A stretch of 64,000 bases of DNA from Escherichia phage SholemSchwarzbard, in the sequence record PP925840.1; one strand, 5' to 3'. The translations under genes and the position numbers were made by a program. This document shows positions 45,624-49,960 of the stretch, piece by piece; position 1 is the first letter of the stretch; each line of letters opens with the position of its first letter. The notes under the pieces were generated by a model that saw only the letters and a list, made by a program, of their open reading frames with translations, was not told the origin of the DNA and ran no database searches.

Positions 45624-46013
45624 TTAATCCAAAATATTATTAGGCATTGGTTGAACACTCACAAGTTCTTTAAAGAACTCAGTAGAGTCAGGCAATTTAA
45701 CCATTTCCGGAGCATGCTTACTGAATTTATGTTTACATTGACGGCATTTATATTCAAGCTCTGGTTTACGCCAGTTAATCAATTGAACTTGTTCAGTACC
45801 GCATTCAGGACAATTAGGAACGTTTTTAGAAGCCCTTTCGCGACGTTCAACCATAACCATAATAGCATCCCAGGCTGGAGGTTTAAAATCTAAATCATCA
45901 CAACCATGAATCTTTCCACGCATTTCCATATCATCTTCCTCACCAGCCATAATAATTTTAATTAAACTGGAATTACTTGAAGCTGCAATGTCTTCTAATA
46001 AACGCTTTTTCAT
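45624..46013 (-). CDS. hypothetical zinc-ribbon protein, 129 aa
   Basis: CPECG...CRQC motif. Confidence 0.65.
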
Positions 46014-46939
46014 TTCAATACCTCAATAGCATTACGTAAACCATTTGCTTTTGCATTAAGAGCTTTTAACAATTTGGTGTGTTCTGCAATTTGGGCTTCA
46101 ACTTCAATCAAACGGGCATTGAGATATTCACGTTCTTCACTCAGATTATCAACCTTTTCTACTTTAGGCTCTTTTACAACTGTCTTATATGTATTAGGGT
46201 TCTTCAGTTTAATTAGAATGCGTGAACTGTATAACATTGAACCATTATCTTCGGTTTCGTCATACATTTCTACTACGTCCATGATTTTTAACATCATGCG
46301 GAGTTTATAAGATAACGAACGAATAGTTTTGTTGTGCTTATTAATTTCTCTAGAGTTCATGGTGCCGAGATTACGTGAGTAATAATAAGGAACCTGGATA
46401 TTAATTAATACTGATGAACCACCTGGCTTGTGTGTTACTTCATCAGCAATAACCCAATCCTTAACATGAACTGTATTTGTACGGTCATCGCCCGCGGTAA
46501 ATAGTTTGCGAGCATGCTTAAAAAGCATATTCACTTGGTCATTGAATTGACAAGCAAATTTATCAGCAAATTTAGTTTCAGGAATGGTAGATAACCAATC
46601 AGCCAAATGGGTCTTTTTAACATCGTTAACAATAGTAAATTCAACCAAATCAGTTATAGATGTCTCAGATTTAATAAAGCTAGGCTTCATAAAGTTTTTA
46701 ATGTTATCGCGAGCTACAGTAGAAGATAACATACGAGAACGTTTAAACCATTGAAGCAAATTGCCCAACGAATGAGAATAAGCGTTTTGAGTATCTTTAC
46801 AGATATGATTTTCCTGGCCAACATATTGAAGGAAATCACGAAGAATATTATTGATTACTGCTCTGTGTCCGATCTGATAATTACGGTGTTTAATAATAAG
46901 ACTGTCAAAATAATCAATATAATGTTTACGAGTTTTCAT
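46010..46939 (-). CDS. hypothetical protein, 309 aa; member 1 of a 4-gene tandem paralog family
   Basis: MKTR N-terminus and C-terminal coiled-coil tail shared with the other members. Confidence 0.75.
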   Translation of the reverse strand: MKTRKHYIDYFDSLIIKHRNYQIGHRAVINNILRDFLQYVGQENHICKDTQNAYSHSLGNLLQWFKRSRMLSSTVARDNIKNFMKPSFIKSETSITDLVEFTIVNDVKKTHLADWLSTIPETKFADKFACQFNDQVNMLFKHARKLFTAGDDRTNTVHVKDWVIADEVTHKPGGSSVLINIQVPYYYSRNLGTMNSREINKHNKTIRSLSYKLRMMLKIMDVVEMYDETEDNGSMLYSSRILIKLKNPNTYKTVVKEPKVEKVDNLSEEREYLNARLIEVEAQIAEHTKLLKALNAKANGLRNAIEVLK

Positions 46940-46991
46940 GTTCTTCTCACTTGGTTAATGATTTATACTCCGAGCCATCCTTGGCTTTAAA

Positions 46992-47993
46992 TTACTTAAT
47001 TAACTGTAAAGCTTGTTCAAGACGATCAAGACGATTAACGGATTCTTCCCAAATCTTTTTAGCACTTTCATATTCTTTTTCTGCTTTATTTTTAATTTCT
47101 AAAGCTTCTTTATAAGCTTTTTCTAGTGCAATAACTTCTGGACGAATTTCTATTGGCTCAGGAGAATCATCGAGCCAATCCATCAATTCTTCAAGTGTGG
47201 TTTCTTCTTTAGGAGCATTCACAATTTCTTCACATTTCTTCTGATGAATTTCTTTATCTGTTAGTGAATAAGCACATTTAACTTCACGAAGACTAATTAC
47301 AATTTTATATCCTTCCCAACCGCATGCATTTGTAAAAGGATATGTATGAACACTTTTTACTGTTTTCATACAATGTAATACAGCCTTTAATTGATGCATT
47401 ATAGTATTCGAAATTGAGAAAAATTTATTAATATTCTTTTGATTAATTTCTGGTGTAAAAAATCCATAATTGATATAAATAGCTACTTTATTTTTATCAA
47501 GATCATATTCCTTCACTGTAATCATATCAGCAGCTAAAGGATGAATTTGACGATAATCACCATAACATAATTTAGAAGCTGATTTTAAAATTTGCTTCTT
47601 GAAAAGTCTGAAATTACTAATCCAACGACGAGTAAAAATATTCTCAGGGTCTTCTTTTATGCGAAGATGGTAAGTATTAACATCACCAAACCATTTATAA
47701 CCTACTGTATCTTTAGTTCGCTTAATTTCCGTACCAAACTTACTAATAATATCTTTATTAACTAAATATGAAAGAAGACGAGATCCTTTAAAAGTTATCT
47801 TAATATCATCTTTATCTAGTCGGCTAGAAATTTCACGAACTTCATGAATAAATCGTGCTGAAGCAACAACTTCCGGATCTATTTTATTAAGCCATTCATT
47901 AATGATTAGAAAGATAACACCTTTGCCTATTAAAGGCTTAACTCTATCGTCAATAGTATTATTAAATGATCTGATATATTCGTTACGAGTCAT
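46992..47993 (-). CDS. hypothetical protein, about 333 aa; paralog family member 2
   Basis: ATG at 47993 (MTRNEYIRS...) with GAGGA SD; track start 48023 sits on the promoter. Confidence 0.75.
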   Translation of the reverse strand: MTRNEYIRSFNNTIDDRVKPLIGKGVIFLIINEWLNKIDPEVVASARFIHEVREISSRLDKDDIKITFKGSRLLSYLVNKDIISKFGTEIKRTKDTVGYKWFGDVNTYHLRIKEDPENIFTRRWISNFRLFKKQILKSASKLCYGDYRQIHPLAADMITVKEYDLDKNKVAIYINYGFFTPEINQKNINKFFSISNTIMHQLKAVLHCMKTVKSVHTYPFTNACGWEGYKIVISLREVKCAYSLTDKEIHQKKCEEIVNAPKEETTLEELMDWLDDSPEPIEIRPEVIALEKAYKEALEIKNKAEKEYESAKKIWEESVNRLDRLEQALQLIK

Positions 47994-48021
47994 AATAATC
48001 TCCTCAGTAGAAAGTAAGAAC

Positions 48022-48051
48022 ATTATACCACATCCTTGTGGTAAAGTAAAC
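48022..48051 (-). promoter_or_regulatory. T4-type early promoter; 33-bp exact copy of the rIIA.1 promoter
   Basis: plus attata 48022-48027 and gtaaac 48046-48051; sequence attataccacatccttgtggtaaagtaaactac identical to 2429..2461. Confidence 0.55.
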
Positions 48052-49043
48052 TACTTCAGTGCACTAAGTGCATTCTTTAATTTTGAATGCTGCTTCATAA
48101 GATTGCTGACTTTTGCTTGTGCTTTTTCTAATGTATTTTTAGCTTCTAAGACTTCATTAGTAGCTTTAGTAAGTTCATCATCAACAGCTTTGATAGATTT
48201 CTCAATAGCATCTGCATGCCATTTTTCTACTGGTTTAAGTTCTTCATTTTTAATAGTACCAATATTACCACTAAATTTCCATAGATCTTTGTTATGAAAT
48301 TTAGAATCATTTGATGAAAAACTAGTTGTGTATTTAATTTCCGGGTTTTTCTGAGGCACAACTTCGTCCTTTCTCAAAAAATCATATTTAAATGAAACGA
48401 TCATATCAAGTTCATACGTTGTTGTATGTTCCCAATTTCGCTCAAAACGAGGTAAAATCTTAGATTGAACAGCAGCAACAACATCCATATACTTAAATGC
48501 TTCTGTCAACTGTGATTTAAGACATTCACAAATTGAAAGAGAATTTTTAGTATTAGGCTTAAAGCTGATTCGCGCAGTTCGATTATTTTCTTTAGATGGT
48601 CTTACTTCCATTTGAAGAGTATAACCATCAAATTTCAGATTCTTTAAGTTAATATCAGAACCTTTTAATCGACTAGCCGTAGACAAAATTTGCTTTAATT
48701 GTCTACGGAATAGAGCAATAAATCTCCATTCAATACGATAATGATTTGGATTGAAAAATCCAGATGATAAATCGACCTTACTTTGACCAACGCCTTGAAC
48801 AAATAGAGGATTTTTATAATCAATAGTTTTACAGAAATCGGTGAGCTGCTCACGAGCAGTCATTTGTGTAATATATCCCGCTTTACTAAAATGACGTAAC
48901 CATTCACTGCTATTCATATACTTAAAGTGAATATCACGATTAACTTTATCAGGGTCTAAATTATTTTGGCACAAAAATGTCATAACATCACGAGTATAGC
49001 TGGCATTACGAACCATATCTTCAATTTGAGAACGAGTTTTCAT
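48051..49043 (-). CDS. hypothetical protein, 330 aa; paralog family member 3
   Basis: ORF track; MKTRSQIED N-terminus; coiled-coil C-terminus. Confidence 0.75.
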   Translation of the reverse strand: MKTRSQIEDMVRNASYTRDVMTFLCQNNLDPDKVNRDIHFKYMNSSEWLRHFSKAGYITQMTAREQLTDFCKTIDYKNPLFVQGVGQSKVDLSSGFFNPNHYRIEWRFIALFRRQLKQILSTASRLKGSDINLKNLKFDGYTLQMEVRPSKENNRTARISFKPNTKNSLSICECLKSQLTEAFKYMDVVAAVQSKILPRFERNWEHTTTYELDMIVSFKYDFLRKDEVVPQKNPEIKYTTSFSSNDSKFHNKDLWKFSGNIGTIKNEELKPVEKWHADAIEKSIKAVDDELTKATNEVLEAKNTLEKAQAKVSNLMKQHSKLKNALSALK

Positions 49044-49051
49044 GGTGTTCC

Positions 49052-49960
49052 TTAAGATTTAAGTAAATCAACAATTTTAATTAATTTTTCACGCTCAGAT
49101 TTAGCTTTACTACTCAATCCAGATAGTCTGAAAATTTCATCGTCATACTGTTGAATAGAAATATTCAGCTCTTCAATTTGCTTATTAAAATAATCAATTT
49201 GTTCAGAATGTTTTTCGTTACTACGAACTGGTACAGGTTTTGTAGGCAATTTAGTTGAACTGGATTCATCCGGGCGATAAATTAAAATACAACTTGAACC
49301 AATTGGACATTTTGCACCAGATGAATATTCTAATGTTCCGACTTCTTTTAAAACTTCAAAAGCTAAACAGAGATGATGCCCCATATTAACATAATCTGTA
49401 GAGCGAGCTCTGATGTAATAATCATCTCCGCGAATACTAAATTTAAAGCATTTAAGGTCTTCTGTATTATTGGTCTTAAAAATCATTTGTTTATCTAGAC
49501 CTTTAGCTAATCGAGCGCCTAATGCTAATAATCGTCGTTGATTTTCCCACAAATCCGCGATCATTTGGTCAAATGATAATTTCGGCATTAGTCGACCATA
49601 AAGGTCATATCCTTTATTATAATTGCGAAGAATTTCACTCGCGTTAATACGAGACAATGCTCCAATTTTATTAAGGGCTTTCATAATGCGATTAGATAAA
49701 CTCATTCCAGACCCGTTTGTTCGCTGTAAATGTTTTTCTAATCCAAATCCAATATCAACTTTAAATTTATCTAAAATTTCAGCATGAACATCTCTGTCAA
49801 TAACATTCAAATCCAGAGTTGGGTTAAATCTATGAAAAAATTTATCTGGCTCTCCACGACGAAGTACAGTCCATTCATTCAATTTTTTATTAACTAAAGA
49901 TTTAATTACTGCATTGACATTATTAATTACTACTGACATATTTTCCTCACTCAATTTCAA
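49052..49960 (-). CDS. hypothetical protein, 302 aa; paralog family member 4 (most divergent)
   Basis: ORF track; shares the W-x-(R/N)-(R/F)-...-L-x-L/A-A-(S/R)-(K/R)-L segment and C-terminal coiled coil. Confidence 0.7.
   Translation of the reverse strand: MKLSEENMSVVINNVNAVIKSLVNKKLNEWTVLRRGEPDKFFHRFNPTLDLNVIDRDVHAEILDKFKVDIGFGLEKHLQRTNGSGMSLSNRIMKALNKIGALSRINASEILRNYNKGYDLYGRLMPKLSFDQMIADLWENQRRLLALGARLAKGLDKQMIFKTNNTEDLKCFKFSIRGDDYYIRARSTDYVNMGHHLCLAFEVLKEVGTLEYSSGAKCPIGSSCILIYRPDESSSTKLPTKPVPVRSNEKHSEQIDYFNKQIEELNISIQQYDDEIFRLSGLSSKAKSEREKLIKIVDLLKS

Follow-up and report, generated by a model that had tools for sequence, protein, structure and literature searches.

Four tandem genes of a T4-like phage, nrdC.3 to nrdC.6, as diverged paralogues of one phage-specific protein superfamily with a probable role in anti-defence

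We analysed the nrdC region in a stretch of 64,000 nucleotides of Escherichia phage SholemSchwarzbard (sequence record PP925840.1), which we call the window: a part of a Tequatrovirus (T4-like) genome with about 35% G+C and almost all genes on the minus strand. A preliminary description, made from the letters of the sequence, had pointed to four consecutive minus-strand genes, taken there to be tandem, strongly diverged paralogues, and the four consecutive open reading frames (ORFs) are indeed present; their synteny and sequence similarity identify them as the orthologues of T4 nrdC.6, nrdC.5, nrdC.4 and nrdC.3, in the direction of transcription. The nrdC.6 orthologue (49052..49939, minus strand, 295 aa; PHROG 2257, E = 3.3e-153), the most diverged member, starts at the ATG at 49939, behind a GAGG and directly past the nrdC.7 stop codon, and not at the TTG at 49960. 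The nrdC.5 orthologue (48051..49043, minus strand, 330 aa) starts 8 nt past the nrdC.6 stop codon, behind AAGGAA, a gap through which the two genes are predicted to be translationally coupled. The reading frame of the nrdC.4 orthologue (46992..47993, minus strand, 333 aa; PHROG 1435, E = 8.5e-151) continues to 48023, and its start was corrected to the ATG at 47993, behind a GAGGAG Shine-Dalgarno sequence, as the ten extra codons fall within the -10 element of a promoter (see below). A spacer of 52 nt on the same strand (46940..46991), with a short hairpin-like site at 46970-46984 and a TATAAAT element, separates nrdC.4 from the nrdC.3 orthologue (46010..46939, minus strand, 309 aa; PHROG 1435, E = 1.3e-115), whose closest paralogue is nrdC.4. 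All four proteins are basic, with isoelectric points (pI) of 8.7-9.4.

Early promoters of T4, which are read by host RNA polymerase with sigma-70, follow the consensus GTTTAC at -35, a 17-nt spacer and an extended -10 element TGnTATAAT. Upstream of nrdC.4 and overlapping the nrdC.5 stop codon, positions 48022-48055 of the minus strand hold the 34-nt string AGTAGTTTACTTTACCACAAGGATGTGGTATAAT, in which GTTTACT, a 17-nt spacer and TGGTATAAT (48022-48051) are followed by the GAGGAG and the ATG of nrdC.4. The site belongs by its sequence to the T4 early promoter class, and its activity is predicted from the consensus. The string occurs exactly twice in the window, the second time at 2429-2462 (minus strand), before a 67-aa ORF (2200-2403) at the position of rIIA.1, and its 30-nt core was absent from all of 100 shuffled sequences; the proposal that an exact copy of the rIIA.1 early promoter drives one member of the array thus holds at the level of sequence. 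The two identical promoters lie 45.6 kb apart in direct orientation, and a second short match is also found in most related genomes; the copies may serve recombination as substrates or may owe their identity to a strong constraint on promoters. Similar early-type sites precede nrdC.8 and nrdC.10, and a strong terminator lies between nrdC.11 and nrdC.10.

Existing databases already place nrdC.3 and nrdC.4 together, in PF26897 and PHROG 1435. For nrdC.4, the Pfam family PF26897 (Phage_T4_Y04OP) is precomputed on a protein that is 100% identical to that of the window (P0059), and the membership of nrdC.3 in the same family is supported by PHROG 1435 and by the family name Phage_T4_Y04OP. The other two genes are held there as separate families: nrdC.5 in PF23882 (DUF7235) and PHROG 2351, the window protein scoring 346.6 bits (E = 1.9e-103) over profile positions 1-307 of 307 against a gathering score of 30 bits, and nrdC.6 in PF26899 (Phage_T4_Y05B) and PHROG 2257, the former carried by a protein that is 100% identical to that of the window (P0125).

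Pairwise BLASTP among the four proteins and their neighbours yields nothing significant (the best pair, nrdC.3 and nrdC.4, reaches E = 0.04), so that with BLASTP alone the claim of shared ancestry would have fallen; similarity becomes visible with profile methods. A hidden Markov model (HMM) of the nrdC.4 family matches every nrdC.3 at 1e-15 to 1e-19 (E = 7e-19 for the window copy). Single-family HMMs do not cross-detect nrdC.5 or nrdC.6, and the nrdC.4-family HMM matches neither. Profile-profile comparison with hhalign reaches further. When unenriched profiles were supplemented with diverged nrdC.5-type genes of other genera, nrdC.4 and nrdC.5 aligned over 284 colinear columns (probability 87%, E = 4e-6). 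For nrdC.6, a first comparison on shallow alignments gave E = 0.004-0.095 with probabilities of at most 9%, and a merged nrdC.3/4/5 profile reached it at E = 7e-5 over 186 columns. The profiles were then enriched, with every remote sequence placed in one family only, and hhalign was rerun. All six pairs gave low E-values: nrdC.4 with nrdC.3 (1.5e-14), nrdC.6 with nrdC.5 (4.4e-12, 217 columns), nrdC.5 with nrdC.4 (8.7e-8), nrdC.6 with nrdC.4 (1.1e-6, within the core outside the coiled coil), nrdC.5 with nrdC.3 (3.5e-6) and nrdC.6 with nrdC.3 (7e-4, probability 26%), the last being the weakest pair, which leans on transitivity. Reversed-template controls stayed at E of at least 0.05 in all 12 comparisons. 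Single proteins from other T4-like genera also bridge the families, with matches to two or three of the profiles: one (P0246) matches the nrdC.4 profile at 3.8e-6 and the nrdC.5 profile at 2.2e-6 over the same N-terminal and central region outside the coiled coil, and another (P0238) matches nrdC.6 at 1.5e-14 and nrdC.5 at 1.3e-5. An exhaustive HMMER search of 1.84 billion representative proteins with a merged four-family profile returned 29 clusters only, several of them bridges of this kind, and a family HMM search found no further members elsewhere in the window. The neighbouring nrdC.8, which has a helical C-terminus, was considered as a fifth, truncated member and rejected (hhalign E of at least 0.06 against all four families).

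Structure models agree with the profiles. The AF2 models of nrdC.4 (mean pLDDT 85.1) and nrdC.6 (mean pLDDT 79.7) present their elements in the same order: a helical bundle at the N-terminus is followed by three short helices, two strands, a long helix and a second pair of strands, from which a poorly ordered linker leads to a long terminal helix. In BFVD, searched with Foldseek, the nrdC.4 model matches the NrdC.6 of phage JS10 (E = 2.9e-4, probability 1.0) and an nrdC.3 (phage fPS-65), and eight further matches are common to the nrdC.4 and nrdC.6 models; these come from Pectobacterium phage PM2, Enterobacter phage IME523, Acinetobacter phages Acj61 and Acj9, Erwinia phage Cronus, Serratia phage CBH8, Yersinia phage fHe-Yen9-01 and Klebsiella phage Mineola. 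We conclude that the four genes are genuine, very old paralogues that belong to one phage-specific protein superfamily, as had been proposed; the link among all four was drawn here, from profile comparisons and structure models. A sequence search of PDB with three family profiles produced chance matches to coiled coils or designed repeats only, no solved-structure relative was found, and Pfam, NCBIfam, PADLOC and PDB yielded no functional lead. Tail terminator and tail completion proteins with an alpha/beta sandwich (6tba_4A; lambda gpU, 3fz2_A) are listed among the closest known systems.

The short motifs by which the relationship had been recognised hold in part. The proposed M-K/T-T-R start is seen in three of the four proteins (as M-K-T-R or M-T-R), nrdC.6 beginning with MSVV, and the basic motif F-[KR]-[KR]-Q-...-A-S-[KR]-L is strict in nrdC.4 and nrdC.5 only, being degenerate, in the same alignment columns, in nrdC.3 (LFKHARKL) and nrdC.6 (LLALGARL). 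The C-terminal coiled coil is found in all four. Hydrophobic residues occupy from 11/13 to 15/16 of the heptad a and d positions, a score equalled in 0-15 of 2000 shuffles, and the models end in long helices (residues 285-332 in nrdC.4 and 242-294 in nrdC.6). This heptad tail, ending in L-x-x-A-x-x-L-K, is the most conserved feature across all families. Among 26 diverse members the conserved columns consist of hydrophobic positions, one basic residue and the terminal L-x-x-A-x-x-L-K. No conserved catalytic polar residue that could betray an enzymatic counter-defence (for instance by NAD+ reconstitution enzymes) occurs in the superfamily-wide columns, and no Pfam, NCBIfam or PADLOC enzyme family scores above threshold for the four proteins. 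Since the columns conserved throughout the superfamily are hydrophobic apart from one basic residue, a catalytic role for these proteins appears unlikely.

The number of copies, read at the syntenic position between an nrdC.10-like gene and nrdC, differs among T4-like phages. Kanagawavirus IME523 and Jiaodavirus JD18 have one detectable member, and Acinetobacter phage Acj61 gives two matches, with adjacent UniProt accessions that do not imply adjacency in the genome. Three members are present in NC-G, MN01 and ABTNLsp5 (nrdC.6-, nrdC.5- and nrdC.4-type) and in Mosigvirus ST0 (nrdC.6-, nrdC.5- and nrdC.3-type), and all four types in Tequatrovirus. The suggestion of repeated duplication is therefore upheld by a series from one to three to four copies across Tevenvirinae genera. 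A scan of viral contigs for nrdC.5 found four close loci only.

Rearranged members of the array were also encountered. In phage ACG-C40 (locus L015, 2504-2915) a natural deletion of about 2.6 kb fuses nrdC.5 at codon ~68 to nrdC.3 at codon ~239 out of frame; in this phage nrdC.4 is gone altogether, nrdC.5 and nrdC.3 are missing for the most part, and nrdC.6 alone is intact. An in-frame chimera on 167-kb contigs (P0058) joins nrdC.5 residues ~146-272 to nrdC.3 residues ~137-309, the nrdC.6 of Shigella phage Sf25 (P0124) contains an internal duplication of profile positions 158-244, and in a further protein (P0235) a body resembling nrdC.4 carries a tail resembling that of nrdC.5. The nrdC.6 of the T4 reference genome itself (L001, NC_000866, 8067-8894) encodes 275 aa, with a frameshift that exchanges the conserved C-terminal coiled coil for a short tail of unrelated sequence. 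The HIDEN-SEQ study worked with a T4 annotation in which this gene has 891 nt; either the strains differ here or the reference contains a sequencing error.

Three of the four genes are hypervariable. The amino-acid identity of the window proteins to T4 is 60% for nrdC.3, 78% for nrdC.4, 82% for nrdC.5 and 98% for nrdC.6, with the flanking nrdC, nrdC.1, nrdC.8, nrdC.9 and nrdC.10 at 99-100%. The variation is modular, as it affects the central core of nrdC.3 (residues 80-260, both ends being conserved), concentrates in the first 60 residues of nrdC.4, and in nrdC.5 leaves residues 1-200 at 85-100% identity to T4 and falls to 45-85% in the C-terminal third, which comprises the last strands, a linker with insertions and deletions, and the coiled coil. 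The window alleles of nrdC.4 and nrdC.5 are rare, as no full-length DNA match in 50,697 phage genomes exceeds 87%. The nrdC.5 copies of Mosigvirus and Dhakavirus stand further off, at 25-27% identity. For nrdC.3, three allele classes exist among 653 phage genomes, and the window protein is 76% identical to the copy of Mosigvirus ST0 as against 60% to that of T4; since the Mosigvirus gene is nearer to it than that of T4, alleles appear to cross genus borders.

The preliminary description had also invoked diversifying selection, and this was not established. The gene-wide ratio of non-synonymous to synonymous substitution rates (dN/dS) of nrdC.3 to nrdC.5 is 0.24-0.33, higher than in most flanking genes (mostly below 0.1 and at most 0.24 in nrdC, nrdC.1 and nrdC.8 to nrdC.10) yet far below 1, values that do not support gene-wide positive selection. 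Synonymous divergence (dS) is much higher in nrdC.3 to nrdC.5 (0.3-1.05) than in the flanking genes (at most 0.25), which argues for old, recombining allele lineages; the pattern indicates relaxed or episodic selection on such lineages, which recombination has shuffled, more than it does a recent positive selection. Among variable neighbours, dN/dS reaches 0.37 in nrdC.2 and 0.84 in nrdC.7. The former, a variable gene that adjoins the array (45624-46013), encodes 129 aa with a CxxC...CxxC zinc-ribbon match and is 79% identical to T4 nrdC.2 (104 aa) over about 78% of the window protein.

Elsewhere in the window, the nrdC.10 orthologue (51402-52490) has weak matches to AAA/STAND-type P-loop proteins, and a strong bidirectional hairpin terminator (52467-52484) lies just upstream of nrdC.10. 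The 362-aa ORF probably includes some 40 codons too many at the 5' end, because its PHROG match begins at residue 41 and homologues have 322-326 aa. At the other end of the window, directly upstream of the rIIA.1-type ORF, a single ORF of 606 aa occupies positions 2458-4278. In T4 this place holds gene 60, mobA and gene 39, and the single ORF suggests that the topoisomerase subunit gene of this phage is unsplit.

Experimental work links one member of the array to phage defence. Plasmid-borne T4 nrdC.5 restores the infection, by a T4 deletion mutant, of cells that carry the SIR2 NADase Dsr1 (Srikant, Guegler and Laub, eLife 2022; PMC9391042), and the sensor domain of Dsr1 recognises the phage major capsid protein (preprint 10.64898/2026.01.04.697583). 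The gene at 48051-49043 of the window is the syntenic orthologue of this T4 protein (Y05A_BPT4), with 82% identity and a full-length DUF7235 match, and differs from it in being a rare allele with a divergent C-terminal third; it is predicted to keep the anti-Dsr1 activity. Other genes of the vicinity counteract other systems: gp49.2 inhibits OLD (PMC13096335), nrdC.1 Septu and bas37_0203 Druantia III (preprint 10.1101/2025.11.20.689424). By its size and its position in the gene table of that preprint, bas37_0203 is the nrdC.8 orthologue, and its candidacy as one of the four was rejected on the same grounds. The window orthologues of these three genes, gp49.2 (44398-44718), nrdC.1 (45379-45621) and nrdC.8 (50410-50937), are 97-100% identical to T4. 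With these inhibitors of three defence systems around it, the array lies in a dense anti-defence island that extends from gene 49 to nrdC.11. The three share with the array the early, non-essential accessory region, T4 nrdC.3 to nrdC.6 and their Bas37 counterparts 0198-0201 being all non-essential on K-12 (preprint 10.1101/2025.11.20.689424), but they encode small proteins unrelated to the four, the nrdC.8 family being without profile similarity to them. The earlier suggestion of anti-defence factors with different targets thus stands for T4 nrdC.5 and is in keeping with the genomic setting; a phenotype has been reported for this one member.

In our view the array probably encodes a family of early, oligomeric, non-enzymatic proteins that act as stoichiometric binders, each blocking a different immune protein. 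The superfamily would have expanded by tandem duplication inside the accessory region between nrdC and nrdC.11 of T4-like phages, its members each combining a helical bundle at the N-terminus with a small alpha/beta core (in order, three helices, two strands, one helix and two strands) and, at the C-terminus, a long coiled coil. They would be synthesised early, nrdC.4 and nrdC.3 from their own promoter and the other two from more distant upstream promoters; folding and oligomerisation would depend on the conserved scaffold and coiled coil, and target specificity on the fast-changing modules. For nrdC.5 the target would be Dsr1, and the most likely mode is a direct binding that keeps the capsid-sensing domain from activating the NADase. 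NrdC.5 would in this respect act on Dsr1 much as DSAD1 of SPbeta phages, in published descriptions, neutralises the sirtuin defence DSR2 (a SIR2 NADase sensor) by binding it. DSAD1 is a functional analogue and a model for the proposed mechanism only, its fold being unrelated to that of NrdC.5, and no sequence or fold similarity to DSAD1 places NrdC.5 in a DSAD1-like anti-sirtuin class. Being diverged relatives of the anti-Dsr1 nrdC.5, nrdC.3, nrdC.4 and nrdC.6 become candidate inhibitors of other defences. Direct binding, oligomerisation and distinct targets are the steps that we infer.

Several observations weigh against this interpretation. Despite good E-values and probabilities, Foldseek TM-scores between family members are just 0.3-0.5, although such values are to be expected of three flexibly linked modules. 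The remote sequences of the enriched profiles were recruited with a merged four-family profile, which could somewhat inflate the scores between families. One of the four genes has a phenotype, measured on a T4 allele that differs from the window allele mainly in its C-terminal third, and nrdC.5 may circumvent Dsr1 by an indirect route. The near invariance of nrdC.6 within Tequatrovirus (94-100%) fits poorly with a target in an arms race, the gene-wide dN/dS is well below 1, and nrdC.3, nrdC.4 and nrdC.6 are not among the conditionally essential genes named in the main text of a transposon screen of T4 and Bas37, which used several clinical E. coli strains. The low TM-scores, together with the failure of BLASTP and the weak first nrdC.6 alignments, could also be read as a sign that nrdC.6, or the whole set, is not homologous at all, the likeness being a convergence of coiled-coil tails and helical composition. 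We hold this to be very improbable and already largely refuted, as nrdC.6 aligns with nrdC.5 at 4e-12 over 217 columns and with nrdC.4 at 1e-6 in a core outside the coiled coil, neither the reversed controls nor nrdC.8, a neighbour with a coiled coil of its own, approach such values, the order of elements in the alpha/beta core is equal in the nrdC.4 and nrdC.6 models, and the Foldseek matches are reciprocal at probability 1.0.

Two other explanations accept the homology and question the function. The four proteins could be general host-takeover or regulatory factors, for instance basic proteins that attach, early in infection, to nucleic acid or to the host's machinery, with the effect on Dsr1 arising indirectly from an altered timing or exposure of the capsid trigger or from an altered NAD metabolism. 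The high pI of all four and the early promoters would suit such a role, the mechanism of the nrdC.5 effect lies outside the scope of the eLife study (PMC9391042), and residues 30-86 of nrdC.3 weakly match the N-terminal core-binding domain of XerD and phage integrases (Phage_int_SAM_1; E = 0.001-0.08), a match far below curated cut-offs that we discarded as evidence; altogether we regard this explanation as unlikely. Somewhat more doubtful still is a single hetero-oligomeric complex, in which the four paralogues would be subunits held together by their C-terminal coiled coils and would have one joint function. The prominence of the heptad tail among the conserved features of all families and the predicted coupling of nrdC.6 and nrdC.5 speak for it, but plasmid-borne nrdC.5 alone rescues a phage without nrdC.5 on Dsr1 cells (leaving aside the other deletions of that mutant), one, two or three members suffice in related phages, and ACG-C40 retains nrdC.6 only. 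Within the preferred interpretation of early, stoichiometric binders, a more specific form is conceivable, to which we give a low, though not negligible, probability: the members would be modular receptor blockers, with exchangeable recognition modules mounted on the conserved scaffold and coiled coil; different paralogues or alleles would jam different bacterial pattern-recognition sensors (Dsr1, other proteins with the Avs7-type capsid-sensing domain, or unrelated sensors), and recombination between alleles and paralogues, as in the chimera P0058, would yield new specificities.

The genes themselves, the grouping of nrdC.3 with nrdC.4 and the phenotype of nrdC.5 were already known; no mention of the homology of all four turned up in the searchable literature or in the family databases that were queried, and it thus appears not to have been recorded before. 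It joins PF23882/PHROG 2351 and PF26899/PHROG 2257 to PF26897/PHROG 1435, and the comparison of genomes documents both the growth (from one to three to four copies) and the shrinkage (the ACG-C40 deletion) of an anti-defence island. Even in T4, the best-studied of phages, most nrdC.x genes lack an assigned function, and three of these orphans now become concrete candidates. The natural alleles and module swaps offer a series in which the determinants of target specificity could be mapped, with a practical bearing on the prediction of host range and on the engineering of T4-like therapeutic phages. If the more specific form of the interpretation were true, phages would have, in this family of receptor blockers, their own equivalent of a diversifying immune-evasion gene family.

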